Source: Blasia pusilla (lineage: Eukaryota). Taken from it: a stretch of DNA of 64,000 nt. A program made the position numbers and the translations under genes. The notes under the pieces were generated by a model. That model was not told where the DNA came from and did not search any database. It was given only the letters and a program-made list of their open reading frames with translations. Positions 7,330 through 55,576 of this stretch are shown one piece after another; position 1 is the first letter of the stretch, and every line of letters begins with the position of its first letter. Location of the stretch: positions 37,882,001 through 37,946,000 of the forward strand of contig CM114271.1 of NCBI GenBank assembly GCA_050084515.1. Reading direction: 5' to 3'.

Positions 7330-7494
7330 TTCCGGTCGGGTGCTGAATCTCGGCACTGATGCGATGGACTCTGGAGACGACACTCTCGAGATGAAGATGT
7401 AGGTACGGGATGCAAGAGCAAATCGAGTGATGGCGAAATTGTGAGAGAGTACTGGTTAGCGATGAAGCTTGCGAACTGAGATCGCGCGAGCTCC

Positions 7495-8246: not shown

Positions 8247-8389
8247 GAGGCTCGCGCAGTCTCAGTTTGCAGGCATTCATCGCCAACCATTAAAGTCTCG
8301 CAATCAATCGATCTGCTCGTGCATCCAACTTTAGATCTCCGTCTAGATCATTTAGTCCATTCCATCAGGGTCGAGATTCAGCACCGGAA

Positions 8390-9162
8390 ATGGGTTCCTT
8401 CGAGTCTGCTGTGGAGTTGGCCGTGCCTGTGAGCGCCCTGTGGGCGGCTTTGAAGGAGCAAAACACGCTGTTCCCCAAGCTCTTACCAGAGGTCATTAGC
8501 AGCGTTGAGGAAATCGAGGGTGTGGAAGGACACGTCGGCTCCGTCCGACTCATCAAGTTTGGTAAGATCACGAAAGAACATGTCAGGCTCAAGAAGTCTA
8601 TGCACACAGTGTTGATGAGTAAATCACGGTCCGTTTTATTGGTCCCATTTAGCAGTCTGTATATAAAGAGGGGGTTTAAATTACGGTCTTGATCGATGGG
8701 GTTCAGTCAATTGCCAGACTTTTGGATAACGTTCAACGAGAGTGAGATCTCGGATGAATGCGTGATCGATGTTGCAATTAATCGCGATGAACGCCTAGTA
8801 TCAATAGGCATGGCCACCTGAAATTGAATGATCGGTTCTCACACCAACACCGTCCACACTTTCCAGTGGCTCCCGCGGGCGCGTTCGTCAAGGAGAAGCT
8901 CATCGGCCTGGACCTCGAAGGTGATTCTAAAATCACCACTCAAGAGATCGAGGGAGGACATCTCAGCGAGGGCGTGGGCTTCACCAAGTGGGTTACCATC
9001 ATGACCATCAGCGCCGTCGGCGATGACAAGTGCAAGGTGCACGTCACCACCGAGTACGAGGGCGGCTTAGAAAACGCCATTCCTGGCGTCGTCGAACAAG
9101 CGCAGGGAGCAGTCACACATTTGTTCAAGGCAATTGAAGATTATATCAAGAACAGCGCGTAG
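8390..9162 (+). CDS. Bet v 1/PR-10/MLP-like (SRPBCC) protein, 155 aa; exons 8390-8561 and 8867-9162
   Basis: Donor G|GTAAG at 8562 and acceptor TTCCAG| at 8866 give 468 nt in frame. The protein differs from the minus-strand paralog at 12 positions. Confidence 0.92.
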
Positions 9163-9808: not shown

Positions 9809-12800
9809 TGTTGGAATGTGTAAACGGCAACAAGCCGCGCTGCACATTAAACAAAAACGCTTCGTAAACGAGTTAGCTCCAATCAAACAGCATGCAAAAC
9901 AGTTTATAAACATGACTTAGGTCATGTATAAAACTCATGGATGTGACAATGAATTCAGCTCAGCAGAATTGCCGGTAGAGAGAATAGGACATCCGAGTGA
10001 GATTGGTACTCATATATAGAGAGAATAGGACAGGCATAACTCTGTACCCTTATGACAGGTACTCATATAAAGTGAAAATGGGATAGAACTCTGGATAGAA
10101 ACATGCAAGTGAAGAGAAGTGTGTACCTTGTTTGTACCTTATTTTTCTTTTTTCACAGGGACAAATATCAAGCTGAAAGAAGAGGAAGAAGACTAGCAAT
10201 CAGAAGTCGATCATATGCAGACAAGGAAGACCAGCAAGATCGAAGCGAGCCTTATCAAGATCAAAGATGACGAGCCTTATCGACAACATATTGAGTGAGA
10301 GCCACAAGCTCGATGATAGCAATTACGGCACTTGGCGATACAGGATGAAGGCCATTCTGATGGCATCTGATCTTTACAATATAGTTGATGGCAGAGAAGA
10401 GAAGACCTCGAATATGGATGCTCGAGCCATGAAAGACTTCGAGAAGAAGAGATCGAAAGGCCCTTGGAATTCTGATGATGTCAACGAGAGATTCTCAAAT
10501 CCCTCATTTGAAACATGCAGAGACCTCCAAGGAAGCTTGGACTACACTTGAAGTGGTTCATGCTAGCACAAGCATGACCAGAAAACTGGCATTGCAGAGT
10601 CGAATTTACTCAATGAAGATGAGATCGACCTCGACTATATATTCACACCTCAGCGTTATGAAAGAGCTAAGAGATGATTTGGCAGAAGTTAAGGTCTTAA
10701 TTGATGATGAAACCATGGGACCACTATGATGAATAGTGTGACCCAAGACTCCTACGGGGACTTCATAAACTCTCTAGCCGTGAGAGAAAAGACGCCTACT
10801 TTTTCTGAACTATGCACACTCCTACTTGACGAAGAAAGGAGACGCAACGACCTTGCTGCCCAAGAAGGACAAAAATCGGGACTTAGCACTCTATTCAGCC
10901 AGAAGAAGGGAACATTCTCTCGTCAATATGAAGAAAGGCGATCACAAGAGTGCAACACATCCGGACCGAAGGCCCAAACCTTCCGCACCACCGAGAAAAA
11001 GTTCAATGGTAAGACCTATAGCACTACCAGCAAGAAGGAGTGCACAATATGCGGTAAGATTGGCCATGACTCCAATCAATGTCAGTACAGGAATGATCCC
11101 CACAATCGATCAATGAGACCACAAGAAAAGCAACGAAGCTTCCTCGTCGAGAATGGGAGAACCAATGGAGCACTCACACCATAAAGTGAAGATGATGCAC
11201 CAGGACTTATCTCGGCATTGGTTATCACAAACCAAGTGGACAAGTGGTTCATTGATAGCGGCGCCAGCAACCACATGATAAAAAATAAAGGTTGGTTCAC
11301 ATCTTACAAACCTTTGATGAATGGACCTGAAGTATCAATGGGAGATGGCTCCATTCACTTTGCGATTGGGGAAGGAGATGTGCAAGTGACATTGCCCTAG
11401 GGTGAAGATTATACAATCAAGGATGTGTGGCATATTCCAGCTTTAACACACAACCTTATCTCCATCGGCCAGATCACCAAAAGAGAGAATATGAAGGTTG
11501 TTTTTGATTCCAAAGGATGGGAGTTCTTACGAGAGGCCGACAATTCTGTCGCTGCCCAAGGGGTAAGGTATGGACGACTATATAAATTTCTTAGCAAGCC
11601 GAGCCCTCAACTATTTGCAAGATCTTCAAACCAACTACAAGTTTGGCATGAAAGACTTGGGCACTTTAACACGAAGGGCCTCAAGTTGTTAAGCAAAGAC
11701 AATATGGTTGGAGGGTTACCTAAATTAAGTGGAGAAATATCCACTTGTGACACTTGCTTACGAGGCAAGCAATCGAGGCAAAATTTTGACAAACATATCC
11801 TCTCAAGGGCTCCAACTCCCCTCCATCTAGTCCACATCGACCTTGGAGGACCAATTCAAACGGCTTCACTATCAGGGGCAAGGTACTACATGCTATTAGT
11901 TGATGACCATTCAAGATTTATGTGGGTTTATTTCCTACAACACAAATCCAATGCATTAGGTATACTCAAGAAATTTCTTACATTGATGAGAACTCAATCT
12001 ACTACAGCAGTGGGATCCTTGCATCTACACCTTGGCGAGCCGCCCTCAAAGGTGAAGGTGATACGAACGGATAGGGGAGGTGAATTCATGGGGAAAGCAT
12101 TTGAGACCTTTTGTTGCGATTATGGCATCCGTTATCAACTTACTACGGCCTACACTCCACAACAAAATGGTATTGTTGAGAGGAGGAATCGAACGGTAGT
12201 TGAGATGGCAAGGTGCATGTTGAAGGGGCGAAATCTCCCCAACTATCTCTAGGCAGAGGCCATAAACACGGCCATCTACATCCTCAACAAGTGCCCAACA
12301 AGGGCTTTGGAGGAGAAAACGCCTGAAGAAGTCTTCACTAGCATCAAACCAAATGTCTCACACCTTCGAATCTTTGGGTGTGGAGCTTATGCACATATAC
12401 CAAAAGAATTGAGCAGAAAATTGATGATAAAAGTGTGAGATGCATATTTATTGGCTATGGCACTAGAGAGAAAGCTTACAAGCTCTTCTCCTTGGAGCAC
12501 CACAAGGTGTTTATGAGCCGTGACGTCATATTTGATAAAGACACTCCCCACTCTGAAGAGCATCAATCAAACGACCGAGAGTGGCCTCAAACCTCCACGA
12601 ACAAGGAGTCAGAAAATGAATCTGACAAGGATACACCATCCTCAGCGCCCACAACTCATGTTGATCCACCACCAACACTTGGTGAAAGAGGTCAAGGATT
12701 GGACGATATGAAGTCCACACTTGCGCTACCACCTCCACGAAGGTCAAGTCGACTACACCAACTTCCTTCCAACTTACGAGAGGATTACATTTTACACATG

Positions 12801-14442
12801 GCTTTCTTTCTAAGTCATACACCATTTCAGCAAGCTCCCATTGAGCCTCAATCATTCCAAGAGGCATGCACTAATCCACATTGGCAACATGTAATGACCG
12901 AGGAGTACAATGCCATAGTTGCCAACCGAACATGGGACCTGGTCCGTCTCCCATTAGGGTGGACTGCTATCCCTACAAAGTGGGTTTATAAGTGTAAGTA
13001 CAACGCTGATGGATCGTTGTCCAGGTACAAGGCAAGGCTAGTAGCAAAAGGCTATCGACAACGCCACCCCTATTGCAGATGGATGTTCAAAATGCCTTCT
13101 TAAATGACACTTTGGAAGAAGAGGTATATCTACAGCAACCTCAAGGCTTTACTGCTCCTGGAAATGAAGACCTTGTTTGCAAGATGCGGAAAGCTCTTTA
13201 TGGCCTTATGCAAGCAAATCGAATCTTGAATCAAACCTATGACTCGACTATGTTAAACAAACTTGGATTTGCAAAGAGTAAACACGACCCGAACCTTTAT
13301 CTCAAGATCTCTACTTACGGGATTGTCATTGTGATCTTATATGTGGATGACTTGATCATTACTGGAGATGATGTACAAGAGATACGTGATCTTAAAGAAG
13401 GACTCTCCTCTTCATTCAAAATGAAAGATCTTGGGAGTTTACACTTCTGCCTAGGACTTGAAGTAAAGCGAGGGCCGAAAATGACCTTCTTGACTCAAGA
13501 AAGGCATATAGCTATCTTGCTTCAAACTTTTGGCCTAGAGGACTGCAAATCAACGCCCACTCCGACGAGTACAGAGAGACTTACTTACAATGATCAAGAG
13601 GAGAAGGTGGACTTAAAAGAGTACCAAAAATTGGTGGGGTCACTTATCTATATCACCAACTCCCGACCAGATATTGCATATGCAGTAAGCTAGAGCCAAC
13701 ATATGGCTGATCCCCGAAAGTCTCACCTTATTGCAGCAAAGAGGGTGGCAAGGTATCTTAAGGGTACAAACACATTTGGGCTTGCCTACGATAGAGGAAT
13801 CCAATAGAGGAATCCAACAAGCTCCGATAATCTTGGGATTCTCAGATGTTGATTATGCAGGTTGCCCAATAACTCGCAAATCAACTCAATAACTCGCAAA
13901 TCAACTTCAGGATATTTCTTCTCCTTTGGAAGTGCGGCTGTGAGCTTCTCATCAAAGAAGCAAGCTCCAATTTCTCTACCGTGGATTGAGAAATGCCACA
14001 ACGGATATGGCTTAGAGGACTATTGGCTGAACTTCGATTTACCCAATCTGATCCTAATGTAATCTTGGGAGATAACATTAGTTCTATTTATTTGTTCAGA
14101 AATCCACTCTTCCATTCATGAACGAAACATATCGAATTGCAGCATCACTTTGTTCGAGAAAAGGTATTGAGTGGGGACATCAATGTTGTGTGGGGACATC
14201 TTCACCAAAAGCCTTCCTACCGCTAAGTTTGAAAGATTTAGATCACTTCTTGGTGTTTTAGATTCGGTGTAAAAACATATGTGTTCAAAGAGGATGTTCC
14301 GTTTAGGGAGGATGTTGGAATGTGTAAACAAAGAGGATTTGAGTCTAACATGAGCTGTTAGACTCAAATCAAAACTCTTCACATGGATGTGACCAATGAA
14401 TTCCGCTCATCAGAATTGCTGAAATAAACTTCAGAAATAACA
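9809..14442 (+). mobile_element. Ty1/copia LTR retrotransposon, near full length, degenerate
   Basis: The LTR start TGTTGGAATGTGTAAAC occurs at 9809 and 14313. A polypurine tract (TTAGGGAGGA) directly precedes 14313. A shared LTR block lies at ~9936-9972 and ~14382-14419. Domain order is gag-PR-INT-RT-RH. The right end is approximate, and no PBS or TSD was recognised. Confidence 0.9.
10267..14270 (+). pseudogene. Copia gag-pol polyprotein with stops, frameshifts and an RT deletion
   Basis: Motifs seen: KLDDSNYGTWRYRMKAIL (gag), CTICGKIGHDSNQC (zinc knuckle), WFIDSGASNHM (protease), WHERLGH and IRTDRGGEF...PQQNGIVERRNR (integrase), KWVYK...YKARLVAKGY and LYVDDL (RT), TRKSTSGYFF (RNase H). Confidence 0.93.
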
Positions 14443-15274
14443 TAATTACGTAGCCGGTTGAATGTACATAAAAAGTTCTCACTTATGGAAACCGAGAAAG
14501 AGTTCGTGAGTGCGGGCAAACACTTTTGTGGAAGGTTGAGACTATCGCCACTAGATGCTTGCGCTTCCCGAAGAAGGAATTAATAGGCGCTCGAAGGGCG
14601 CGTCGTTGAGGAGCTGCTTAATATTAGATAGAAGGCAAGCAGGACCAGCAATTAATCATTGAACAGTCTGCCGTTGCAAGCAAAATAGTGAAAGTAAAGA
14701 CGGCGAAGGAGTAAATTGCAAATGATATGGATGTAGAGGGTAGTTAGCGTACGCGAAGATGTTTTTGTAAGAGGAAAGTTTTTGAAATATCTTACGAAGT
14801 TCTATCACTTTTTAGAGTCAAAACTGTACATGAAATTATAAGGAAATGTGGATTGCTAAGTGGAACCATCCGAGTTTAGGAATAGAAGCCCGCTAGATTA
14901 GGGTTGAGTGTGTTTTTTTTATCTCAAAGACGGTGTGTGACTGAAGTAAAATTGATAGCTCGAAAGACTGATCTAATATGCGAAGGTACACCGCGCGTGA
15001 CATTCCTTACTAAGGTATTCAATTGGAACATTAGACCGAGCTTTCAGTCACCTATGCAGCCCACGCACAGCGCGCATGGTCTTGTAGACGTCACGAGAAT
15101 TTGAACAGCTTCGATAACTGCCAGCTAAGTATGGTCTCTGAGAAGCACACGGGTGCTTGATCACGACATGTACAACCGAAATCGTTGAGTAAATTGGAAA
15201 AATCTCACTTGGTTAGTCCCAAAGGACAGTGTATTAAATGTAGCATATCCTACTTGATTTGAGAGTGCAATCCT

Positions 15275-17090
15275 TGATGTTAGGGAAGGTTTGAAAGCTT
15301 ACAAATGCCTTATCCCTTTCCAATATAGACGTCTATTTTGGGAAGGGGGTTGTCACCCATCTAGTCATTTTGCCAAGAGCTAGTTGTTAGACTCAACCAA
15401 ACCATACGTTACATAGTGTAATGATGCACACTTATGCAATTATGACATTGAAAGAGTCATATGATGTGTTGGTAAAGTACTATGTTATATCCCTTTGGGT
15501 TTATCCTGATTTCTGGGAGAGTAGGTTTCTTATCGACCAAGATGGAAATCAGGTGATGGATGGTTGAGCCATTTATATGTATGCACTAAAATTTCCACAT
15601 CTTTGTAAGCCAACAAGTAGAGTTCTATTGGATAATATAGATGGTCATTGGGTTGTTTTGGTGAAACTTTGTCTTGAGGTGTTAAATAACGTTGAAGATA
15701 GGTCTCTTGCATCATGAGCATCATTTATGAAAATTCCCTTGCTTGCTCTTTGTCGGCAAGTAATATGTTGACAAGTAAAGATCACTTTCGATAATATGTG
15801 CCAAGTTATCGTGGGAGGGGCTACTTTTGGGAGGCTATAAGAGAGGGAGAGATTCCAACTCTCTTATACCCTTTCTCAAGCCATATTTCTCAGTTTGGGC
15901 TTTTGGAGCACATCTCTTGCTTGTGTGTATGTAGGAACTAGGATGCTAGCCTTTGGATTCCCTCATAGAGGCAAGTAGATGTGGCTTGATATGGCAATGT
16001 AGATTTGAAAGTGGAGTTTGCCGTGTGAGTCATTTTTACTGTGATTTTGTTGTGTGATCTTGATGTTTATGCATGAGTTTACTTTTATATGGGTGTGGAT
16101 CTATCTATGTGTCGGGAAGATCGATGTTGTATGGTGTGGATGTGACCAACAATGTGGATTATATAGCAATGTGTATGCGCATGATAATAGTCACGTGTAT
16201 TAACATGTGTTGTTAAACGACATTTCATTGTTAAAGGAGGATAAAGATAAGGTTAGTTAGATTCATTTGGTGGTGGCAATTTAGAGGCTTGGTTTACAAG
16301 ACCCAAATGCCATGTTTTGGGTGATTGTAAAAGTTCTTCGATAGTTGGAGACTAACAAGAGATGTTCTCCAACCTATATTTTGGAGAACGTCCCATTGTT
16401 AGGTGACACTCAAGCTTGATTGATAGTTGTGTGCATTAGGTGCGGTAGTGGATAGGACTGACTTGCAACTTGGAAGCCGGTGATTGGTCCTAGGTTGACA
16501 AAAGTAGAGAGGAGATGAGTATTGCAATTCTTGTGGCCATGGAGTTTCATGGACTATTTTGCATATAGTATGGGAAATTTGGGTATGCTCAAGGGTCTAG
16601 GTATTCGGATCGAGTTGGATATTGAGACGCCTATTTTCCAGCGACCTACAAATATCTTTGCATGGAGCAACCCTTGATATAGAGCAAGAGTCAAGACTTG
16701 GTTGATGTTGGACATTGATCTACCAAAATTATTCTGGCAAAGAAGGATAGGCATGGCTAGTGGATTGATATGTGGATGACGGGGATTACTATCATATCAA
16801 TCGGGATACAAAGGCTGATCACTTGGCATGCTATGCCTACTCTTGAGGAGATCTTTGATGCAATGACGCATACAAAGATCTTCAATTCTTTGGATCTTTG
16901 CGCAAGCTATGATTAATTACCTATCCGAGTTAAGGACATGGAGAAGACAATATTTTGGGAGATAGATCCTTTCAGGAAGGATTGTTTGTACCAATGGTAG
17001 TTCTTACTATTTGGGTTGAAGAATGCCATGTGGGTTTTTGGCAAGTTATGGATAGGATTTTGGTTGGTCTAGATGTTACATTAATGATTT
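15275..17090 (+). mobile_element. Ty3/gypsy retrotransposon remnant (LTR-like region plus RT fragment)
   Basis: About 16827-17027 translates as HAMPTLEEIFDAM...IFNSLDL..SY..LPIR..DMEKTIFW...FGLKNA, a gypsy RT pattern. An LTR-like TATA (CTATAAGAG) lies near 15835. Boundaries are approximate. Confidence 0.7.
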
Positions 17091-17249
17091 CATTATCTTC
17101 AATGTCACCGATGATCGAGAAAGAAGAGTCCATCCAACTAGAGATGCATGACAACCTGGTCATTTAGAAAAATGACACGTGTATGAAGGTAGGTTGCCAA
17201 GAAAATCTACAAGAGGAGGAGGAGGAGGAGGGGTAGGGGGGGATGGATA

Positions 17250-17867
17250 CAAGGCACTCTTGGCCTATTTTCTCTCATTTTCTTTTCTTCGTGCTTTGCC
17301 ATAAATTCCAACCTCTCCTCGTGCGCCTACTTCCTTGAACGTTAATCTTGTTTGTTATGGAAGCGCGCTCAGGAGGTCACGCTCTCAACGCTGATCTGCA
17401 TCCAAACACTCACTTCGGTTAGTCGGGTCTTGGATCAATCAGCGGGATGACTTTTGAGTTCTCGCCTCGAACTCTCTCTTCAAGCTCAACCTTCCTAGTT
17501 TCGCGGTTTCAACACGTGCAAGTCTCGAAAGACTTGGGACAGACTTTCTGGTCGGTTCAAGGCACTCTTGGCCTATTTTTCTCATTTTCTTTTCTTCGTG
17601 CTTTGCCATAAATTCCAACCTCTCTCAAGGCGCCTACTCTCCTTGAACGTTAATCTTGTTTGTTGCGAAGCGTGAGTTCAAAGAGGGTCACGCTCTCAAC
17701 GCTGATCTGCATCCAAACACACACTTCGGTTAGTCGGGTCTTGGATCAATCAGCGGATGACTTTTCGAGTTCTCGTCTCAAACTCTCTTCAAGCTCAACC
17801 TTCCTAGTTTCGCGGTTTCCAACACGGGCAAGTTCAAAGACTTGGGACAGACTTTCTGGTCGGTTCA
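17250..17867 (+). repeat. Tandem duplication with a ~308-bp unit (17250-17557, 17558-17867)
   Basis: Both units begin CAAGGCACTCTTGGCCTATTTT and end with GACTTTCTGGTCGGTT. Confidence 0.95.
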
Positions 17868-19389
17868 GAACTGTTTCGCGCTAGCGGTTCCAACGTCCGA
17901 TGAACATCCAATGAGTTCCTCTCCAAGACTCGCACGAAGTGAATTTGGTTGGAATCCTAGTGTGGCGTACAAAGTCCACTCCTTGGATCAGGTTTGGGTT
18001 TGGGTTTCGCGCCAAACTCCTGTTCCATCCCGTGCCTCTAAAACGCCCGTTTGGCGCCCAAAGTGGGGTTTCGTTTCCCGAGACATCTCAGATAAGGTAC
18101 TCCCCTTACTAGTACTTCTGGGGATCTCCGGGGCCCCCTACATTTAGGAAAGACACCAGGCCCCTCCATTGGCCCTCAACCCGATTGCTCTCTGAATCGT
18201 TTTCGGCCAATATCTCAGCCTGTACTTATGCGTTTGCTGAGATCTTTGGTGCGTTGGAAGCGTCTGGAGATCAGCTTTCCAACGCGCCCTTACTTGTCCC
18301 AAACGCATCTTGGAGCTCAACGTTATGGTCCTAAACACAGTCAGATTCTCCCAAACGCTAGCACCTATATTCCATCTAGGCGCGTCACTAAGTTCAGTCA
18401 TGAAACATGAATGAGATCACCACAAACCCCAAGACAGACTCATCTGCCCGCCCGACGTTAGGCGAGCCCAAATGCTAGTACTTCAACACTTGGTCCCTGA
18501 TCTAGATGCCTTATCTCGAATACAAGCTCTCACCTCAAATACTCATTGTTTGGTCTCCTTGACTTACATCCTAAGCATATGAAAAACTACTCATTGCCTT
18601 GCACAAACCAAACTCAAAATTACAATACAAGCATCGAATCTCCAAATCCATGTCTTCTTTATTGCAACAACTAAACCTTTCTAGTTACAACGGGTTATGC
18701 CCAAGCTTTCGGTCACAAGTTATGTCCATTGCTTCACCATGTACTAACACGTGCCTTTCTTGCATCCATCTGAAGTCACGCAATGCTTTTTGCGCATGTT
18801 CTAGAGGCAATCCAAGTCGCCTCTTTCACATGATAGCCTTTCCACTTGACCAAGTACTGTTTAAAATTTTCAATGAATAGTCTCAACCAAAACTCTGGTT
18901 CAATTAAGAGGTTTGTGTTGTGGCAAAACATATTTTCAGTTATCAAATTCCCCTATTTATGGATAAAAAAAACTTCTTGAAAAGAGTAGAGAGAGGGAGA
19001 CATGAAGGATGGAATGAGATTATGAAGATATACCACAAAATGAACAAGTTTATGTAGGGGAGGATGGAATCCGAACAGACGACCTATTTGATATATTCGT
19101 AGATATGGTCGAACATGCATGTACGTCCCATGGACAAACTTGCGCGTTTTGGTGCAACCTTGAGTTGAGTGGCATATTGGATAAACTCAAAGCAAGGTTG
19201 GTTGCACAAGGTCTATTGTAAGGGTAGCAACCATTCAAAATGTTCTTGCAGTGGGAGGAACAAGACGTTGGCATGTATACTGATACAATATGAAGTTTTT
19301 ATCTCTAAATGGGAGTCTCAAGGAGGAGGCGTATTTATCTCAACCACCAGATTTTGAGACACTCAGATTAGAAGAGAAATTATGTGTGC

Positions 19390-20630
19390 TTCATTGAGCA
19401 TTTTATGGGTTGAAGCCAACCCCTAGGGTATGGTATCAACGAATGAACACATTCTTTAGAGAATGGGTCTCATTAAGAGTCCCTCATAAGGAGATATATA
19501 TGTGTTTTGCAACAAAGATGAGATATATAAGCTGATCCTCTTTTATGTCGATGATATCATCATCACAAGAAACCATAATGAAAAAATAGAGGAAGTGAAG
19601 GAAGAGTTGAAATTTGAGTTTGGAATGTAAGTTGTAGGTCTACTACATAACTTTATTGGTCTTGAGATTTGGCAACAGTTAGATTATATTTTTCTTTCTC
19701 ACCAAAAGTATGCTAGGGAGATCTTGAAGGCACTTAGGATGACCGAGTGTAAGGAAGTGCTCTCGCCATCACGGATTGATTTGAAACTCTCAATGGAGGA
19801 TCTTTCACCATTGGTAGATGAAAAGATGTATAGAAGGCTAGTGGCATGGGAAGTTTAATATTTTTGTGTAACGCAAGACTAGACATTAGTTTCATTGTGG
19901 AAGCTATTGAGTGGGTTCTGAACTAAGCCTCGTGAGAATCGTTGGAGACGGGGGTGCTTTGTGTTGAAGTACATCAAATCATGGTTGCAAGGAAATGGAC
20001 ATGTCTGTCCATGGGACACATATGCCCAATGGGTCCCTCGCCCAGGTTTTTTGCTATCCTAGCGGCGTGCGCCAAGCTCTAAAAAGGCGTGCAAATGCAG
20101 GCTAAGGGTGGGCCGATGCGAGCTAAAATGGGCAACAGAATCTTAGATTGGGAACGGAGAGGCCGTGCGTAGGTTTATATCGTGGGCCATAGGTTTATAT
20201 CAGGTGTTGTATCATGGGTCAATGAGAAGCAACATGTAATGGCTCTTTCTTCTACTCAGTGGGAGTAGAAGACAACTTGTTATGCTTCGTGTGAATCAGT
20301 ATGGTTGAGACACATACTGGAAAATATAAAAGCACCAAAAGGTGCTACTATAATAAGGTGTGATAATCAGAGTTGCATCGACATAGAATATAATTTTTTG
20401 TTTCATGCTCATACAAAGCACATACAGATCAAATATCACTTTTTTGGTATGTTGATCGAGAGAGAGGTGTTTAAGTTAGTCTATTGTTGAACAAAGGATA
20501 ATAGTGCAGATTTCAGATATCTTCATCAAAAGCTTTGAGGAGGGATCAATTTCAAAGACATTTGAAGCCTCTTGACATCTGCCCAAGATAGTAGTCCATT
20601 TAAGAATAGATATTGGGGAGGGGGATATTA
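19390..20630 (+). mobile_element. Ty1/copia remnant (RT C-terminal half, RNase H, PPT)
   Basis: Motifs seen: FYVDDIIIT at 19541, FIGLEIW, YRRLV, ALSST, IRCDNQSCI and HAHTKHIQIKYHF. The polypurine tract GGGGAGGGGGA lies at 20615-20625. Unrelated sequence interrupts it at ~19980-20195. Confidence 0.85.
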
Positions 20631-20774
20631 GAGTCACAACATCTACTTCTCTTGAAAGATTGAAAATAAAAAATAAGAAAACCCTCCCTTCTTTCTCTCC
20701 AACCTTTTAACCGAGTACCACATCCTTTAAGTTTTTGTCGCTGGCATTGAAAATTTTAAACACGTCACCAATTA

Positions 20775-20814
20775 CGGGAAAAGGTTAGAAAGGTACCTTT
20801 CTAACCTTTTCCCG
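20775..20814. repeat. Perfect 40-bp palindrome
   Basis: CGGGAAAAGGTTAGAAAGGT followed directly by ACCTTTCTAACCTTTTCCCG, with no loop. Confidence 0.95.
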
Positions 20815-22752
20815 AAAGTGTGACCTGAACAGAAGTGGAAGTAGAAGGCATGCTTCCACTACTACTAGTAAGGACTGTGACATGAACGGATACGCATTTA
20901 CTAATAATTCGGTTTAATTTTTCAGAGAGTAGTGTTAAAACACGGAGTAGCAGCTAAAAACTACATGCTCTCATTTATAAACTCACTAAACTTTATACAG
21001 AGAAGTAGCCCTTCTTAATTCCCTTCACGGCTAAGAAATCGGGACTTGATTGGCTTTTTAGCCCCGTCTTGTGCTCCGGTGCAAAGTCCCCTTAAACATT
21101 TTTTTAAAAATTTCATAAAACTGGGCTCTAACTCAAATATTACACACAATTTCTGTCCGAACTGGTCAAATAGGAAAGTTTTCAATTCAAATGTTTCAGT
21201 CGAAATCGACTGTCCGATATGTTTTACCAGAACAAGGTATCATAAATACAAATCATAAACATAGTTCAGAAATATTTTCCACAAATAGCGACAAGAAGCA
21301 TCTACGAAAAACATGGCAACCAGAAACTAAGAAACATCTACCAAAGATACGTCTGTTTTAAATGCGTTCAAAGTGGTCACGCTCAGAAACAACTACTGGA
21401 TATATCTTTTGAATCCTGCCGCTTGAAATATTGGGCCAAATATTTTCCTATAAGATAATTTTTTAAGAATAACCTCCAATAATTTGAATTTCCTTTTCAC
21501 TACCGAAATTTCATGTCCTATTATGTTGCCAAAATTTTCCTAATTCGTCAAAAGTACTTATCCGCGTAACGAGTACTTATTCACTTGAGAGGGTAGATCT
21601 CTCCTGAGCTCGCTCACATGCATACCGGGGCCGCAAGTAGATGCAGGTCAAGTTTACGTGATGAAAGGTGTATCCAAGAATCGAGCGCGTACATTTCACC
21701 GCGTAGGAAAAATCCAAAATTTTCTAGTTTTCAACTACTTATCGAGTCACTAGCCAGAGTGATTGAGAATCATCCAGATCTGGAGCTTGATTCGATTGGG
21801 ATTCTACATCGATGGAAAACTTGCATGCAGAATTGTAGAGAGTCGATCCCAGTGTATTGAAGTTATGGTAGATGGGTGAAGTCACACATGTCAATGTATT
21901 CTGAGAAGATCGAAGTACCGTGCTTATGTACCCATTGTGGATCGGTACTTCTAGATTGCTCCATTGATCGATATCCAACGAGCTAATTCTAATGAAGAAC
22001 CAAAGATTGCAGAATTAGCGTGGAGGTAAAAAATGAAGTACAGTTGATAAATTCACGCGGTGCGGATGATTTCAAGATTTCAGGTACTTGATGCACACGT
22101 TCAATATGGCAATTTCCAAAACTTGTGTATTTACATACAAGTACATGTAACAGCTGATCTCGGTGTAATAACTTTCGAAATTTTACATCACCTACGCATT
22201 TAGCTACATTGCTAACCAATTGAAACATCCACACGGGGAAAAACGTTTTACTAATCAGAGCGTTTCATGATCTTCGAGATTGCTCGTTAGATCCAGGGCC
22301 TGGGAGTCGGTATGTATTGAAAGTCACCATATCCGTCTACTTAGTAGAGTTGGATCCAGGAAAACAGTTCAAAAGACGATACTATATAAATACTCATCAG
22401 GGCCAATGCTCTTCTCCACGTTATTTGAGATCTACTCATGATAATTGTAAGCTATGGTCACGTTAGGTTCGAATTCCGAATTCGTTCCCAATTCTGACAT
22501 CTATCTTCCAATCCATGAGCCATAGGAACGGAGTCCGTTAATGAGCGTGCCAAAATATGTGGGCGTGAGTCCTTCGAGAGTTTGATTAAGTTTATTTGTC
22601 GAATTTTTTTGAACAGTTTCAATGACCTTAACCGGTCATCGGACCTACATGTCTAGATCTAACACACGTGAGCCAAAAGATAGAATCTACACTTAGAATC
22701 AGTCTTTCAATCCAAGTTCGACAATCACAGCTTATAGTCTATCCTTTCCGTG

Positions 22753-23316
22753 CAGGCTTGGATGCGGGCTCCATTAGCCCGTATTGCCCGCGGACCGCAC
22801 TCGTGCCCGGGCACACCTAGCAATCCGCTAGTGCGCATTATGCCCGACCCCCAATTTTCCATCGGATCCGCGTCGCAGACAAATTAGGTCGCGTCGTGCC
22901 CTCTGATTCGTCGCTTCGGGCCTAGCCTGCGTACATCCCGGAAGCGGGCTTTGTGGCCCACGACGAAGCGTGTGTGCGGGCCTGCGAGCCCCCCGCCCTA
23001 CCCGCATACGGGCCTGCAATGTCCGCCCCTCAAGCCCTCGAGCCCTTCCCCGCCCGCATGCAGACCCGGGAGCCCCCATGCGGGCCAGCAAGCCCCAGTC
23101 CCCCGCTCGCATATGACCCCCCCCCACCCGCCCGCATACGAGCCCGCGACACCCACCCCCGGGGCCCATGAGCCCTCCCCTGCTCACATTTGGGCCCCCA
23201 AGTCCCCCCTTTGCGGGCCCGCCATAGCCCGCTGTGGCCCGCTGTTCCCACTAACCCCGTGGGGACACGCGGCGGCCTGGGAGTGATTGGGGCCAAGTTC
23301 GAACTTGGCCCCAATC
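22753..23316. repeat. GC-rich segment with repeated TGCGGG/CCCGCA motifs, ending in a perfect 32-bp palindrome; resembles a transposon terminal region
   Basis: The motif occurs in both orientations near 22762, 22974, 23001, 23052, 23078, 23130 and 23211. The palindrome GATTGGGGCCAAGTTC|GAACTTGGCCCCAATC spans 23285-23316. Confidence 0.6.
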
Positions 23317-23977
23317 CCCTCCCCTCCCCTTCCCCTTTTTTTCCTTTGGGGTAAAACCCATCAGGGAAGGGGCCCACAAGGGACCCAAAAATGTACATAT
23401 GGAGGGGGAGTGAAGGAGTTAATTAACTAATTATCACTTATTTTCCCTATCTTTTAGTGATATTTTGGATTAGGCTCCAAATTTTTATGGTGTCTTGATA
23501 GCTAAGGGCTTTCAAGATTACTAAGAACTTTGGAGAAATCCCTTGGGTGCCTTTTGGGAGTACTTGAATTTTATTTGGGACCAACTTGGATATTTGCGCT
23601 TCTTGTTGCATCTGAAATAAACTCCAATTGACTCCACATTAGATGAGTGTTTGTGAGTGTGGAAATCTCTTGTTTCACTAAACTTGTTGGGTAATTTTGA
23701 GATTTCCGATTCATAGACCCGAGTATTTTGTCTTGTTTCATTGGTTCTCCTTAGCACATCGGGGATGTGGAGGTGATCAAGGATCCTTGTCTAAACACGC
23801 CCAAATCTACCTATTCCCTTTGAGAGCCCAACCCTAAACTTCCATCATTCAAACGCTAGTACATTCAGAGCCATTTTTCTAGCATCTCACCTCATTCTAT
23901 TTTTAGTATTTTCTTATCTCAACCCATATATTTCTTTCCCTTATATTTTAAGATATTATCTTCTTCATCCAAGGGAA

Positions 23978-25316
23978 ATGTCTAGTGGGGCTGATCATCG
24001 AGAGCGAGAGAGAACCGAAATGTGTCTAACGTTGGTGCCAAGAGGCAAAGAATAACTCTGAGGAATGATTTCAACATGGCCATAAGAGAGGCATGGTTAG
24101 ACTAGTTTTTCCAACTTTCTTTAGACAAGACACGATCCTACATTTCGAGGGATATGGATGGTTTACATGACTACTCCTTGGAATTGCAGAGATTTTCCCA
24201 TAGAGTGGCAAAGGCATTTGACGGGGAAGTGGATGCCGCGGAGGCTGATAGGTTGACTAAACGTTGTGCCCAACAAGGTGTTAACCTGAAGAGAGCGTAT
24301 GTCGATCTCAAGACGTATAAGGATGAGAAGCAGAATGCTGCAGAGTCTGCTCTCCTAGAAAGATTTTGTATAAAGTTAAGAAGTGCTCAACGTCTTTTCA
24401 AAGGACGTAGTACTTCTCTGGAGTTGACATTGACCGTTCCATGTGCAATAACTTTGATTTTGGATAAGAATGTAGTAATAGGACATGACCCGAGCGATAT
24501 GAGGGGAACCGGTTTACACAACATTGAGTAACGTTGTAAAATAAACGAAACCGATGGCTTTAGGGAAGAAATGTACTATTGCATGAAGGTGTATAAGGAA
24601 CCATCTCTATCAGGATCTAGAAAATCGATGATGCCAGAGGAGTTGTTTGCAAGTATTTTACATAGGGGTGTGGTTCGCATGGTGGGAAGGTTGATCAAGG
24701 ATCCATTGTGTGGACACCATGCGACACCTCGAAAATTGGTTGCAAGCTTGCTATAGCTTGAAGAACGGTGGGGGAAATCTAGGAGAGTTGGAAAAGATGA
24801 GATGCCTCGCAATAGCATCAATGTCGTCAAGCTTATGGTTTCCCTTCTTGGTACCATGGAGATTATCCACAAGCATGGGGATTTTCATACCGACCTCCAT
24901 GCTAGAAATATGTTCATCCATTTTGGATCCAACTCTAGCCCATACATCGGCGTTGAAGATTGGGGGAATGTCATGTGGACTGATGAAGTCTTGGAGTCTC
25001 CTCATAAATGGTGGCAGCATGAAAAAAAAACCATGTTGGGCATATAGCACCGGAGTTGACAACAGGGCCTCAGAATCTCCCTTTTAGCAAGGCCACTGAA
25101 ATCTAAGCCCTACGAATAATTGTGAAGAATTTGAACTATGTGACATACAACCTCTCTATCGGGAATGCCCAAGCGAACGTGAGATTTACTTATTTGGAAA
25201 GGATTTGAAAGTGGGCATTAGCTCCGAATCCCTCTGATCCCAAAAGCTTAGAGTTTCTTATTGCATATATCAGAGCAAATGCAAAAGTATTAGCTGTAGA
25301 CGATGTTCGGGATTAA
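23978..25316 (+). pseudogene. Protein kinase-like pseudogene, apparently intronless
   Basis: Subdomains appear in order: GTGLHNIE*RC (I), YCMKVYK (II), EELFAS (III), HTDLHARN (VIb), EDWG (VII), HIAPEL at ~25041-25058 (VIII), SKATEI*AL (IX) and LAPNPSDP (XI-like). Stops and frameshifts interrupt it. Confidence 0.85.
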
Positions 25317-25532
25317 GGCCAATAACAGTGATAGTATGATTGTAAACCCGTTTGAGGATTGGATATTTTTCATGAGAAATGAAAGACTTGGTTCAAAAAG
25401 ATGAATGTGTTACTATGAAATTTGTAAATGATGAATCTTGATTGATGTGCAGATATATCTTGTGCCATCCTATCACTATTATTGGAAGCATTTCTAAATC
25501 ACCTTTCTTTTTTTATTTCGATAAAAGACAAG

Positions 25533-27127
25533 ATGGAGTTGCCACCTCAAGAAGACTGTAGCCCTCACGCCGACGGAAGAGGGGAAGAACCCCTCGATAC
25601 ACCGACACCTGAGATCCCTCTGAAGGTGAACAAGAAGATGGTCTCGCAATTCATCACGGAAGATGAATTGAAGGCACACTTGGATAGCGCTATTGACCTA
25701 CAAGTTTTAAAAGGAGAGTTCAAGAAGTCGCGTTGAAGTGGCCGGAGTGTGGGATTGGAGAATTTGCAAGGAATATAGAATACAGTGATTGGACGAAGGA
25801 TTGGGCTTTATTCAATGGCGTCCGAAAGTACAAAGACTTCCCCAAGAGGAAGATGAAGTTAGTGAGCAAGGTATTTGTTCAGCTCAAAGTCACAGATTTT
25901 ATGAAGAATATGGAGGTCCTGTATGGCAATGTGGATGAGGGGTCTCCGAGAAGAGATAAGAGACCAAGAGAAGAAGACAGTAGAACCCACGACAACACTT
26001 TAAACGAGCAAGAGTGGAAGCTTCATCACCATGAGCGTTGTCATGCCATTATTAGCAAGGTGGATTGTCAAGGAGCGTTAGAGCCATACTATCTTCTTTG
26101 GATGGTCAAAAAAGAAATCGTCGTGCTGAAGAATATATACAAGATGAGAGTGGAGATAAAGGGCGAGTACAAATGGGGGCGGAGGATAGAAGAGATGGTT
26201 TGAATGACCTCTATGTAGGTCGTAGTACGAGCTTTGATGAGCCCGGGGGAGAGTTCTGATCGCCCTATACATAGCGGTGCTCCTCCCCAAACCTTTCGCG
26301 GGGAGAGTGCTCTTGATAATAGCGAGGTAATATCTCGTCTACCACGTTTGGAGAGTTTAATAACAAATTCCCAATGCAATTTTGATTTGGACGCGGAATT
26401 CAACGTTCTAAAGGGGAAGTATGAACAGCTATCTGAGGAGCACATCCGATTGAAGAAAGAGATGGAGAGGATTTTGATCGAATCTATTGCCACAGATGAC
26501 CTCCATAGAAGGCAAAGAGCTGTAATGGTTGACCACACAGAGCAGTGGAGGAGAGCATACAAGAACATCATGGCAAGATGATAGCAAGAGATGGATGAAT
26601 TGTTGTGATGGAGAGCAAGAGGTAATGTGGAAGAACTCACCCCCGAGACAACCCTACTTGAGGGTCATCTTGTGAAGGAGGTTGATATGATCTTATTTCA
26701 ACCTATCGAGCAGTTGTGGCCTCCGGCACTACGCGTAGCATGGGACAATGTTGTAGATCCAAACGCTATGAAATATGCCTCTATGATATTGGCACCAACG
26801 CCTCTTAATCCAAACACACAAGTGCAAGATCTTCCAGATTGGATGAAGGCAATCGCAGTATGTGAAGGAGGGGCCCTCACGCCAAACAACTGGCCCAAAT
26901 GCATGATCTATTTCCACCCCATTGCTGCAGAAGGTTGCTACGTGAGAGGCACATATAAAGCTTGTTATTGGCATCCATATTGTCTTCAAAAGGCCATGCT
27001 ACTATCTCACAAGTGTCCAACTTGTAGACAAGCGTGGTCAGGAAGACTCTATCACCTTTTTGGCATATTTTTCCACGCTCTTGATGGCAATGTACCACCC
27101 ACTTATCGCAAATTAACCCGAGAGTAA
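25533..27127 (+). pseudogene. Coiled-coil plus RING-type zinc-finger gene, degenerate
   Basis: Consecutive plus-strand ORFs (25482, 25733, 26234, 26627) are broken by frameshifts and stops. They include a heptad-like stretch (EFNVLKGKYEQLSEEHIRLKKEMERI) and CMIY...GTYKACYWHPYCL...KCPTCR, a RING pattern in which two Cys appear as Tyr (TAT, plausibly from TGT). Confidence 0.65.
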
Positions 27128-30100
27128 GAAAATTTCACTTTCAGTTTGGGACCTCGTAGCCCCCATCAAACTAAAACCCCAAAGTGAACATAGACGGGGT
27201 GGTTCAAACAGAAATCCCTCGCCAGCGGAGGATTGATCGGGCAATGGGAGCATGGTTGGTCTGCTTCATTGACATGTACGATCGAGGAGAGCTCATCCAC
27301 GGAACACCCATTAATTAGAGCATCAACATTTCTGCGTTTTCATGCTAGTAATACAACATGATCAATATCACCAAATGACAATAACTCGAGAGCCTTACGG
27401 CTTCAAGTATTTTGAAGGGCCAAGATCCTTGGCTCTTGGGAGACATGGCAAAGTTCATGTCTAGAAAAGGATTCACTTTTGGAATGTGGTATAAGTCCGG
27501 AAAGTAATATGAATATCAAAGAAGAGTTTTAGTGCATAATTGCTTGCAAGCCAAGGAGGGAGGAGTCTTTTGTGGATGTTATATAGCTTATCCATGACTC
27601 TCAAGCAAGGAGGAGTTATTAAAGTGGCCAAGCACAAAGAGAAAAGAACCCTATTATTTTGGCAGGAAGTTCAAAATCATCTAGAAAAGGGCACTAGCAA
27701 CTTTGGGAGTCCCTTAAAATGTTCCCATAAAATCCGAATTTTCACCAAATGCAAAGAGAAAACTCTTGCCTTCTACTTTCTATTTTAATTCTTACTAGCT
27801 TGTGCCTAAACGAACTTTGGACTACTACGGAATTGGAAAATATACTATGGGAAAGGTTATTTACCAAGTTTGAGACGTAAAAAAAGATTGGCTACCATCA
27901 TCGTTGGACTTATTCATCAAAGTTTTGGATATCAATTTCATCTATTTTCCAGTGTTCTTGTTATATTAAACAAAGTAATATCCCCTCGTCAAATTATAAT
28001 ATAGATGTGCGAAGGCCAACCACCCACTTAAAAGAATGGGTGTAAGAGAGAAATACCAGATATTATAAGAAGAAATTAAAAAAAAACTCCCCCTACCTTG
28101 CATCCATCATTCACAAACAATTGCATCCATCATTCAAATGTGAAACTTTAGGAAAATTGACGTGAAAAGTAGGTTTCTTTGTTAAATTAAAAAAAAACCG
28201 GCTACAATGATGAAATTGCCCATTACCTTAATCTTTCTCTCGGAAAAGTACCGGTATGCGTCAAAATCCTTGCCGAGCACTGTTCACAAATGTGGTAGGT
28301 GAGTTTCAAGCTTCGGCGATGGAGTCCGGACCCCCTTCGGTCGAGAAAAAGACTCCGCTTGGCGCCTTTTCCGCCTTGGAAAAAGAGCCACTCATGCCTC
28401 TTCGCAGCACTCAACTACCGCCCCAACAGACACACTGCCTTCATGATGGAATTGACTTATGACTACTAGCCCTTTGGACTAAGTCTCGCTCCTTCCGGTC
28501 TGCGTCCTCAAAGTCGAAAGCTTGCAAGAGATGCCTTTCGAACTTTCTTGCATGTGGGAAGTAGGAAGTATGGCATGAAGAGTGCAACTACTGCATCACA
28601 ATTATTAAAAACGTTGGCGCGTAATTTCGGCAACAAAGCTTGTGGATCGTGAATGCAAGATTCGAGAATTGAGGGAGAATTGTAATGTGAAACTTAGTCT
28701 TGCATTACATGAAAACTCTTAACAACCTTCCAATTTAAACCCTTGGGTTTGAGCTTATTTTACTGGATATGTAGGTCTTCCAATTTAAACCTTCCAAATG
28801 GGTAAACTATTCATTACAAGAGAAAAGGAAAAGCGGCAAGTCCAGTCGAGGCCATGGTAAGAGCCCCAGAATGTGGACACACTCCCACGGAGACATATTT
28901 TCGTTGAAACATAACGGATTTTCCGTGCCAATGAGGTCATTATTTTTAAGCTTAGCCTGCATGGGGGCAGTTGAGATCTCCTTCGATCAGAGTTCAAACC
29001 TTATCCCAAAAGTCCCATCCGTTTTATATGTGTCTGCGATCTATTTCGAAAAGAGATTCAGTGTGGTACTTGGCAGAAATTTTATTTTGAGAAACCAACG
29101 CTCACAGTTCACCAATTTACCACGATCCTCTGGCTCTTGAAAATCAATCTCAGTCGGTGAAAAAGATGGGGCATAGAACTATGCTGGAATCGCAGGACGA
29201 AGAAATCTAAGATGGACGCAAACCTTAAGATCATCCCTTTAGTCGGAAGGAAACCGTGTACGTATGCAGGACTGATTCAAGTCCAAAAGTCAAAGGCTAT
29301 TAATTTCAAAGTTAACGGGCCCGCGTACTCGAAAGTGAACGATTGATCCTGTTTGTTTGTGTCACTGCTTTCCCAGTGCTGCAACATCTGGAGTCCAGGT
29401 TGATAGAAACTAGGTGCACGGAGATCTTAAAAGTTGAATTTCAATACTGGAAAAGGATCCAATCAAAAAAGTTGAGCTGAAATATTCCAAAAGACTTCAA
29501 GATTTCAGGAAAACAGAGTTCAGCTTCACATTAAAGCACAAATTAAGACTCCATAAACAAATTCAAAAGAAGCTGTCGATTTCACTCACAGAAATCAAAA
29601 CAAGAAACTGATAGTCTGTGTTAACTTAATTTGGTTTCCATAATTATTGACAGTCGCACTGACAATAAGGGAAATGAGGGAAAGCAACACAAATATCCCA
29701 TCCCTCGGTGATGCTCTTGGCATTGATACTCACTGTGGCCCATATTCGTGTTTGCAACGACCGATTTGTACGCATGAACAGATCAGTCCCACGTGTCGAC
29801 AGTGAAACGTCTTCAAGCTGAAGGTCGATCAAAACCGGGACATATAGCATGAAGTATAACAAAGTTCCAAAAACAGTTTTTAGAAATTTTCCTTTTAATT
29901 TTATACGGGGAGAGGACTAGGAATCGTGGCACGTTTGAGAGCTTCCAGAAAATTTTCACCACTAAATCTGCTGAAAATATAGGAACGTCGATGACCCTTG
30001 ATCTCACGAAACTGAAAAAAAACTAAGCAACTTCAGGTCATTGTATGCGAGCCTTTGGTACGGGAAATAGGCACGAAGAGGAAAAAGCACCAATGCACAC

Positions 30101-30598
30101 AAAGATTTCTGTGCCTTAAGAAATCCGACTATCCTAGCATAAAGTCGAACAAATCCGAGTTATGACACATTTCATCAACAATCGAGAAGCGAAAAACAGA
30201 GGAAGGATTTCAAAACGCCAAAGTCAGAGCTGCACAGCTTTGGTCAAGATGTGGGAACTCTCTTGCAAACCAAAATCCTTTTTTTTTCAAGGTTCGCAGG
30301 GAATGAACTTTAATTCGCGCTCAAAGTCTCTTGCACTCCGTGTGGTAAATAGTGCTTTCAGAAGGAACTATGGGTAGTTGTGACGTTACAGTAATGTTTG
30401 GTCTTTTATTTTCACTCCTATCGAACTTTTTTTTTTCTTGATTGAAAACTCTGATCCCAAACTTCTTCCTATCGGATTCTTTTTCCAAAGCTCTTCATTG
30501 AACTCTAGAGAATCGCTCTTTGCCAGCTTCCGATGTAAATTGTTAATGGGAAGTGAAGGTACTAGATTGGCGGGTTTGGATCCTAAGGCATAGCACTT

Positions 30599-30604
30599 TA
30601 TAAA
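30599..30604 (+). promoter_or_regulatory. Probable TATA box of the third PR-10-like gene
   Basis: TATAAA ~155 bp upstream of the ATG at 30758, a spacing similar to the two paralogs. Confidence 0.55.
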
Positions 30605-30757
30605 GGAATTCAACTCTACTCATCTTTACATCCCATCCCTCACAGGTTTCTGATCAGACCACGCTCACGAGTTCACATTTGTTCGATCTCCTCCTCTGCT
30701 TCAGTACTCCCTCCTTGGAATTTGTTGTCGCCCGCTCTGCTCTTGCAACCGAAACTC

Positions 30758-31907
30758 ATGGGTTCCTTCGATCATGACGTCGACTTGGAGGTGCCTGTTG
30801 GCAGCGTCTGGGAAGCCTTGAAGGAACAGGATACGCTGGTCCCAAAGATCCTACCGGAGGCAGTCAGCAGCATTGAGCAAGTTGGGGGTCCCGAGGGAAA
30901 TGTTGGCGCCATTCGCCTCATCAAGTTCGGCTCCTGTAAATGAATTTCAACTCTTCTCCACAGAAACTGAACTCTTCATGAATTATTTGGTTATTTCATC
31001 GCTACTCCATCAACTCTGGCACTGTGTGCATTTATGAAACTGTGTGCTGCATCTTCGAGTCAGAGTAAGTGGGCAGACGATAGTGTGAAGGGAGCGGTAG
31101 TTATACTGGTGACTGATGTGCTACCTCTTCATCTTCAGCTTATTCGACTGTAGTGACTAAAATCGATATGGATCTGTGGCGATTTGAAACTGCCCCTCTT
31201 GAAGATGTGTCCAAATCCGGTTTCACCGGCCAATGAAGTTCTCAAGGATTGCATATATTTTTTCTTTACTAATCCATGAAGACTACTTAGAAGTGAATTC
31301 CTCAAGAATACCTTAAGTTCTTGCGATCATTTGTGCTTAATGCCCTATTCAATTTCGATTGGTAGTTAAGGCCCACAAATGTTTTCTCTCATCTGTCGAT
31401 CCAATTACAATTCACCCTCCCCTCGAGCTCTCTGTCTTTACATCGGGAAAGCTATTTAGCATACACCTTAAAGTTGATCTGTGTTCCAATCTTCAATATG
31501 TAGCGGTGTGACGACGTGTGCAGAAGTAGAGTTCTTCGCCAATGGCCGCTCCCGTATCTACATGTTCCTATGCCGAAAACAGAACTTACTTAAATTCTTT
31601 TGTTTTCTGTTTCATTCAAGCGGCTCCCGAGGGCGCCTTTGTGAAGGAGAAGCTCCTGAGCTTCGACATTAAAGAAGGAAAACTTGTCTCCGAAGAAATC
31701 GAAGGAGGACATCTCATGATGGGCTTCACTAAATGGGTGACCAGAGTTTTGATCTCGCCAGTCGGTGATGCCAAGACCAAGGTTAGTTTCTCCATAAACT
31801 ACGAGGGTGGCTCAGCAGACAACACCGATGGAGCTGTTGAGCAAGCCAAGGCAGCCATGACGACATTATTCAAGACATTGGAACAGCATTTGAAAACTAA
31901 AGCTTGA
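30758..31907 (+). CDS. Bet v 1/PR-10/MLP-like (SRPBCC) protein, 154 aa; exons 30758-30935 and 31621-31907
   Basis: MGSFDHDVDLEVPVGSVWEALKEQ...GGPEGNVGAIRLIKFGS joins SAPEGAFVKEK...EIEGGHL..GFTKW...LFKTLEQHLKTKA across a phase-1 GT-AG intron (30936-31620). The spliced length is 465 nt, in frame. Confidence 0.92.

Positions 31908-55315: not shown

Positions 55316-55576
<261 letters not shown>

Follow-up and report, generated by a model that had tools for sequence, protein, structure and literature searches.

Plant transposons carry extra open reading frames (ORFs), almost none of which have an assigned biochemical activity. Helitrons and Pack-MULEs are multicopy elements, mobilized in trans, that carry non-transposase coding sequences on one strand, and the genes captured by Helitrons usually retain introns and have clear host paralogues. 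VANC of the VANDAL21 Mutator elements is an anti-silencing protein, and ICP0 of the herpesviruses is a RING ligase. According to passages of PMC11963269, the additional ORFs (aORFs) of plant long terminal repeat (LTR) retrotransposons, such as TRP28 of Retand, occupy a region of approximately 3–6.5 kb, have no known role, are kept in most copies of their family, and often have no recognizable homologues. Here, we analyzed a stretch of 64,000 nt from the genome of Blasia pusilla (contig CM114271.1 of assembly GCA_050084515.1, positions 37,882,001–37,946,000 of the forward strand; hereafter, the window), which contains a cassette of two decayed ORFs: gene A, which is kinase-like, and gene B, which ends in a RING-like domain. 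Our preferred reading, to which we assign a probability of about 0.72, is that the cassette locus is an inactivated member of a dispersed mobile repeat family, with the cassette as a cargo module, in a plant genome that is large and rich in transposons. The cassette resembles gene-carrying Helitrons and Pack-MULEs in being a multicopy unit with non-transposase coding sequence on one strand; however, the fragments captured by those elements normally contain introns of their evident host parents, whereas the ORFs of the cassette are intronless, near full-length, and orphan, and terminal hallmarks were not found. It resembles the aORFs of plant LTR retrotransposons in that both are element-borne ORFs of unknown role, but the aORFs are located between pol and the 3′ LTR, mostly in antisense orientation, whereas the cassette lacks LTRs, gag, and pol, and its two ORFs are sense; moreover, kinase and RING domains are not in the domain lists given for aORFs in the passages of PMC11963269.

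Public sequencing reads from four runs were placed on positions 11001–31000 of the window at a likeness of at least 80%. In run X11, which consists of whole-genome raw reads (approximately 1.97 billion letters, both mate columns summed, 667-nt bins), the depth over the cassette was 93–150 and dropped to 0–0.6 in the flanks (Table 1), as expected of a dispersed repeat. The same profile was observed in two runs of Logan contigs from a different study, with depths of 1216–3341 versus 5–8 in X1 and of 172–259 versus 0–0.75 in X3. Because position 23528 was already 84 deep and position 27262 was 147 deep in X11, these values, together with the bin means, place the ends of the repeated unit near 23420 and 27340, and the 5′ end at around 23420 coincides with a switch in GC content from 66% to 38%. 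The spacer between the two ORFs was as deep as the genes themselves (111 in the bin 25008–25674, with 95 at position 25395 and 75 at position 25420), which means that the leader, gene A, the spacer, and gene B are copied together. The whole unit was multiplied as one; it is approximately 3.9–4.4 kb long, has low-copy DNA on both sides, and contains little beyond the two genes. It comprises, in order, a 0.65-kb leader, gene A (kinase-like, without introns), the 216-bp spacer, gene B (also intronless, with the RNF4-type RING at its end), and a short trailer. The first-pass annotation of this locus, made from the sequence alone, had proposed mobile-element cargo and named copy number and conservation of the kinase–RING linkage as points to check; the depth over both genes and the spacer agrees with a dispersed multicopy family of conserved linkage rather than with a single-copy locus or with two independent processed pseudogenes. 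The CpG depletion of the unit (observed/expected 0.62) equals the window average (0.65) and is not distinctive.

Two other features lie close to the unit. Directly upstream of its 5′ end lies a 671-bp block (22750–23420) with 66% GC and short CCCGC-type repeats, within which there is a perfect 32-nt palindrome (23285–23316). Its depth in X11 was low (3.2 in the bin 22340–23006), and run X1 had no contig there; the block may be a part of the element, such as a promoter, or a separate insertion, or it may be under-sequenced. Downstream of the unit, a small separate repeat (28150–28250) was around 41 deep at position 28221; its RNA reads carried the family letter in 12 of 12 cases, and its expression was above that of the cassette.

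Gene A begins with the ATG at 24077 and is read in frame 1 up to approximately 25030, with stops at 24103 (TAG), 24529 (TAA), and 24754 (TAG). A frameshift in or adjoining the A9 run (25022–25030) leads into frame 3, which passes through APE, is interrupted by stops at 25104 and 25206, and reaches the end codon at 25314–25316. The motifs HTDLHARN, DWG, and APE occur in canonical order and spacing, APE following the frameshift, so that gene A shares the H-x-D-x4-N, D-x-G, and A-P-E motifs of eukaryotic protein kinases (PF00069; nearest solved chain, VRK1). It differs from typical protein kinases in its HTDLHARN loop, in having DWG for DFG, and in its Pfam scores, which are about half of the cutoff: Pkinase (PF00069; gathering cutoff, 31.7 bits) gave 16.7 bits (E = 0.005) with a 96-amino-acid piece and 14.5 bits (E = 0.024) with the read-through. 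When the PDB was searched with the 96-amino-acid core (E ≤ 10), all 13 matches were to protein kinases, with the alignment falling on the catalytic loop, and the best was VRK1 (E = 0.098). In a language-model atlas, the gene A piece reached 0.94, and the family-named entries among the matches listed all belonged to the kinase-like clan. Candidate segments for the N-lobe glycine loop, VAIK lysine, and alpha-C glutamate (GTGLHN..., YYCMKVYK, and PEELFA) were picked by eye and are covered by no alignment, and a model predicted from the single sequence with AlphaFold2 (AF2) was unusable (predicted local distance difference test score, pLDDT, 35.1). Judging from these motifs and matches, the product of gene A probably has a protein kinase fold, to which no subfamily is assignable; the likeness to any kinase is too low for a reliable alignment, so a kinase phylogeny is not feasible.

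Gene B starts at the ATG at 25533 in frame 3 and shifts to frame 2 within 25697–25736. Stops occur at 26201, 26216, 26579, 26582, and 26606, and the end codon is at 27125–27127. In the PDB search, its last ORF of 172 amino acids gave an ungapped alignment of 56–57 residues to the RING domain of RNF4, with E values of 0.036–0.037 for three single-domain chains and 0.39 for a fourth; a tandem-fused RNF4 construct reached E = 5.6e-05, with the domain counted twice. Arkadia was matched at E = 0.06, and RNF4, Arkadia, and RNF165 together made up 11 of the 13 PDB matches. The likeness to the RINGs of RNF4, Arkadia (RNF111), and RNF165 lies in the C-terminal position, the spacing of the ligand positions over the ungapped alignment, the long first loop, and the R-x-Y-H tail. 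Unlike RNF4, gene B extends 21 residues beyond the RNF4 end, the rest of it matches nothing, and in the RNF4 alignment this copy does not have the full eight zinc-ligand Cys/His residues in cross-brace spacing: Cys or His occupies six of the eight ligand positions, the first being W and the third K. In the language-model atlas, gene B scored 0.92 and its ten best family-bearing matches were all RINGs, as is also the case for one third of shuffled proteins. Outside the RING, PDB searches returned nothing meaningful, and there is a weak HALZ hint from Pfam (Table 1). The single-sequence AF2 model of gene B was unusable (pLDDT 32.8).

Stops were strongly depleted in both genes relative to dinucleotide shuffles. 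Frame 1 of gene A (24106–25044) contains two stops in 313 codons, compared with 19.1 ± 4.1 in the shuffles, and frame 2 of gene B (25697–27124) contains five in 476 codons, compared with 28.1 ± 4.9; for each gene, none of 1000 shuffles was as low, which indicates that both are real former coding regions. For the stretch of gene A after APE (25047–25316, the last 90 codons), the stop-poverty was not significant, 150 of 1000 shuffles being as low. The kinase and RING calls themselves appear as weak, sub-threshold similarities, albeit consistent ones. The copy in the window is inactivated, with stops and frameshifts in both ORFs and two RING ligand positions occupied by non-ligand residues. These results bear out what the first-pass annotation had read from the locus, namely two decayed ORFs on the same strand separated by about 215 bp (216 bp by our count), a kinase-like motif series of HxDLHxxN, DWG, and APE, and disruption by stops and frameshifts, the latter amounting to one in each ORF.

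Searches for relatives were negative throughout. The gene B read-through had no match at E ≤ 0.001 in an exhaustive phmmer search of 1.84 billion representative proteins, nor did gene B have any in a word-indexed protein search at near lengths; gene A had none in two word-indexed protein searches, at near and longer lengths. Scans of 2.9 million viral contigs and of metagenome contigs yielded no relative of either ORF, NCBIfam returned no family, and PHROGs returned only two matches at noise level (E = 0.18–0.19). As neither gene has detectable homologues in these protein searches, the family is probably lineage-restricted and missing from present annotations, and the ORFs are not members of any known conserved host family. 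Keyword searches restricted to open-access text, supplements excluded, brought up no paper that describes, in its title or the opening of its abstract, a kinase and RING gene pair in a plant repeat.

The reads placed on the 20 kb were mostly diverged in X11, 17200 of 28273 being less than 90% alike, and 1478 of the 2222 variable places in the same 20 kb were transitions. Among the differences listed for 23421–27340, which form a small, tool-selected sample, 20 were places at which the majority of family reads departs from this copy: nine had A or T here for G or C in the family, three were the reverse, and eight were transversions. This makes plausible the earlier suggestion that the copy decayed by G-to-A and C-to-T changes. 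Ten of the listed majority differences fall inside the ORFs, of which six are synonymous and four nonsynonymous, a hint, from so small and selected a sample, of past purifying selection on the ORFs. At position 24881, the family encodes V where the window copy encodes D, and the V makes the stretch preceding the catalytic loop more similar to ordinary kinases. In the RNA run X14, the depth of first mates on the minus strand across 23.0–27.0 kb was 0.5–2.05, compared with 0–0.43 on the plus strand, which is the polarity of the plus-strand copia control, so the family transcripts are sense. The RNA reads carried the family letter and not that of the window copy in four of four cases at 23528 and in three of three at 24881, indicating that other members of the family are transcribed. 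The sense RNA reads come from these other members.

As to the class of the element, ORFs of at least 75 amino acids between 14 and 36 kb (137 of 173 scanned) contained no reverse transcriptase (RT), transposase, or capsid-type Pfam family other than an RVT_2 relic (Table 1), in line with the first-pass annotation, which had seen no such gene adjoining the cassette; the main plus-strand ORFs of the cassette were scanned with Pfam separately. Pfam scans found neither integrase nor RT within the unit, no transposase in the unit or adjoining it, no viral hallmark gene in the unit or nearby, and, across the window, no RepHel, helicase, or Rep family. The unit thus encodes no replication or integration enzyme and would therefore depend on mobilization in trans or be what is left of something larger. 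If intact, gene A would encode a divergent enzyme of the protein kinase fold with catalytic-loop, DxG, and APE motifs, and gene B a RING E3 ligase, probably dimeric; both products would be accessory proteins of the element and not its copying machinery.

Several points weigh against regarding the cassette as the cargo of a mobile family. No direct repeat that could represent LTRs and no inverted match exceeding 9 nt that could represent terminal inverted repeats (TIRs) connects the ends of the unit, and the primer-binding site (PBS) pattern matched three times in the window, where 4.45 matches were expected, and never at the 5′ end of the unit. There is no A-run at approximately 27340; an A7 run at 27879–27885 was set aside as a poly-A candidate, the depth being already low there. 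No convincing target-site duplication flanks the unit: a 10-nt direct match (23525/27812) was rejected because the depth has already reached its full level at position 23528, and we considered TTAATTA at 23419/27311 too weak a candidate. The 3′ hairpin of Helitrons is also absent, with the best fold at −3.4 kcal/mol (z = +1.05) and 179 of 200 shuffles folding as well or better. With neither a terminal structure nor a mobility gene found, what speaks for mobility is copy number and dispersal. The family size, on the order of a few hundred copy-equivalents, comes from two rough ratios, with a baseline of a handful of reads and with summed contig depth, which is no copy number. Moreover, the linkage of the two ORFs derives from read depth at a likeness of at least 80% and not from other contiguous copies, the ends of the unit are known to approximately ±100 nt from 667-nt bins, and the 64-kb window contains no second copy of the cassette. 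At the protein level, the Pkinase scores of gene A are sub-threshold, and the zf-RING_2 matches of gene B are not significant (E = 0.43 and 1.3; cutoff, 27.3 bits).

The proposal of the first-pass annotation that the cassette is mobile-element cargo therefore survives in part: the multicopy, linked, and transposon-like character of the decaying cassette stands, whereas the idea of a large element does not fit the length of the repeated stretch and the low-copy DNA on both sides, and the LTRs, TIRs, RT, transposase, and viral hallmark genes sought at this copy were not found in the unit. A further suggested link, to a methyltransferase-like exon at 1827–2289, gained nothing from Pfam, which assigned no family at E ≤ 1 to the four ORFs of at least 75 amino acids there. 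The suggested action of the two products on host silencing or defence is speculative. If the locus is a dead copy of a mobile family, a compact non-autonomous element, for which Helitron-like is the best-fitting class tested, is one tentative form and an internal remnant of a larger element is another, equally tentative; the rest of the probability goes to an unrecognized class of elements.

The alternative that survives best, possible though doubtful, is that the cassette is the internal piece of a larger autonomous element, such as the aORF region of an LTR retrotransposon or the accessory region of a CACTA or Mutator element, from which the ends and enzyme genes have been deleted. Plant repeats of this abundance are mostly LTR retrotransposons, the window has copia, CACTA, and Mutator-like remnants, and a whole unit and a fragment are indistinguishable by read depth. 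The pol-to-3′ LTR regions of plant LTR retrotransposons, with a mean length of 4.6 kb, contain aORFs of unknown function (passages of PMC11963269). Against this, the DNA is low-copy on both flanks, and the repeat stops approximately 650 nt before gene A and approximately 210 nt after gene B, so that two deletions tight around the genes would be needed. In addition, no piece of an RT, integrase, or transposase adjoins the unit, and the terms kinase, RING, ubiquitin, zinc finger, conserved domains, and coiled each occur zero times in the main text of a review on aORFs in plant LTR elements (PMC7264820).

An unlikely alternative is a non-autonomous Helitron carrying both ORFs and copied in rolling circles by RepHel made elsewhere. 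The negative searches agree with such an element, since Helitrons have neither TIRs nor LTRs and do not generate target duplications; both ORFs are on the same strand and transcribed in sense; and Helitron-like motifs lie near the ends inferred from depth, A|TC at 23433–23435 and CTAG|T at 27345–27349, which would delimit a 3915-bp unit matching the depth boundaries. However, these motifs are short and the ends imprecise, with a rough chance of 0.06–0.1 of both lying so near the ends, and both the defining 3′ hairpin and, within the window, the RepHel gene are missing. Gene B has no homologue, unlike the genes that Helitrons usually capture.

Two explanations appear far less probable. An endogenous viral element, in which the kinase and RING ligase genes of a DNA virus were later multiplied, is akin to the virus-like element proposed in the first-pass annotation, and there are leads in this direction in that Nucleocytoviricota supply many of the RING clusters closest to gene B in the atlas and the best PDB kinase match is the vaccinia-related kinase VRK1; nevertheless, the VRK1 matches are not significant (E = 0.098–0.9), capsid, polymerase, packaging, and integrase genes are absent nearby, the search of viral contigs found no relatives, and several hundred diverged, transition-dominated copies look transposon-like, so this explanation is very improbable. 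Equally improbable is an ordinary host gene pair or large host gene family spread by segmental duplication because, although the cassette lies within a Bet v 1-like cluster and plants have large kinase and RING families, the non-coding leader and spacer are as deep as the ORFs, whereas the flanks and the Bet v 1-like exon downstream are not, and the protein searches found no homologue of gene A or B.

The preferred reading, a dispersed mobile family with the cassette as cargo, would have consequences if its intact members encode a kinase and a RING ligase, since a transposon family of a few hundred copies would then bring its own protein-modifying enzymes, and host manipulation by plant transposons would become directly testable through two assayable activities. 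If the ORFs are the decayed cargo of an ordinary element, the unit is merely another unclassified repeat. A bolder version, which we consider a long shot, is a plant mobile element of a kind not yet described, which has an atypical kinase and an RNF4-like RING E3 of the SUMO-targeted-ligase type as its sole genes and is copied in trans, with selection keeping the pair to modify and degrade host factors such as SUMO-dependent silencing proteins. Its likeness to VANC and ICP0 would be one of concept only, that of a selfish element with a protein acting on host chromatin silencing.

Table 1. Positions of the cassette, the sequencing depth across it, and other features of the window
Feature	Position	Strand	Remarks
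Repeated unit	23421–27340	+	From read depth; ends ±100 nt or more; 3′ end could reach ~27860
Non-coding leader of unit	23421–24076	+	Full repeat depth; no Pfam-matching ORF; GC 0.378; CpG observed/expected 0.43
Gene A	24077–25316	+	Decayed atypical protein-kinase-like ORF; helical N-terminal part and kinase-like domain
Catalytic-loop motif HTDLHARN	24886–24909	+	Read from sequence; aligned to VRK1 HGDIKASN
DWG (DFG-equivalent)	24958–24966	+	17 residues past catalytic-loop Asn
A9 run with shift from frame 1 to 3, then APE	25022–25055 (APE 25047–25055)	+	Frame 3 from 25023 reads ...HVGHIAPE
Spacer between ORFs	25317–25532	+	216 bp; AT-rich; GC 0.31; part of the repeat
Gene B	25533–27127	+	Decayed ORF; acidic N-terminus, leucine-zipper-like stretch, C-terminal RING-like domain
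Leucine-zipper-like, possible coiled-coil stretch	26396–26467	+	Pfam HALZ E = 0.021 and 0.11, both sub-cutoff
RNF4/Arkadia-type RING-like domain	26891–27061	+	Conserved-looking C-terminal tail, RLYH versus KRYH in RNF4
Short trailer of unit	27128–27340	+	Depth 100–147 at 27153–27262, then falling
Synonymous differences	25610, 25691, 25709 (frame 3), 25795, 26408, 26911		
Nonsynonymous differences	24881, 26039, 26773, 27093		
X11 copia control	11001–13668		Depth 54–80
X11 flank bins	21006–22339		Depth 0.56, 0.58
X11 edge bin	23007–23673		Depth 34
X11 five consecutive bins	23674–27008		Depth 93, 105, 111, 117, 150
X11 bin	27009–27675		Depth 65
X11 bin	27676–28342		Depth 13
X11 flank bins	28343–31000		Depth 0, 0.46, 0, 0
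Bet v 1-family exon copy	7132–7455	−	
Bet v 1-family exon copy	8294–8689	+	
Bet v 1-family exon copy	30758–30930	+	
Ty1/copia element	10433–13690	+	
RVT_2 relic	19631–19855		75 amino acids
ORF with weak SWIM zinc-finger match	41029–41784	+	252 amino acids; E = 0.3
Decayed CACTA element	47831–54189	−	Transposase_21 and DUF4218 (E = 2.9e-31)
CACTA transposase pieces	51447–53513	−	

The window as a whole is plant-like nuclear DNA with abundant transposon remnants. From the positions of the Bet v 1-family exons (Table 1), the cassette is inserted within a Bet v 1-like gene cluster; the copy at 30758–30930 has 72% DNA identity to the other two. The ORF with the SWIM-type match is possibly a Mutator-like remnant. 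A repeat of far higher copy number than the cassette extends over 16337–19004, with a depth of 350–1000 in X11 and with RNA reads present. It contains an internal tandem duplication of 308 nt (17269–17867), and read ends at 17630–17633 run on into GCTCTGATACCAC-type sequence, which resembles the complement of a tRNA-Met PBS; the repeat probably represents a minus-strand LTR retrotransposon. A 26-nt inverted repeat without a loop, 92% complementary, lies at 20769–20820; the sole match in an Rfam scan of 20–31 kb, to rox1 on this palindrome (20766–20822), scored 31.1 bits against a cutoff of 58 and was taken as chance. Finally, a long microsatellite of the GA/GAGA type, which translates to (ER)n in one frame, spans positions 55170–55600.

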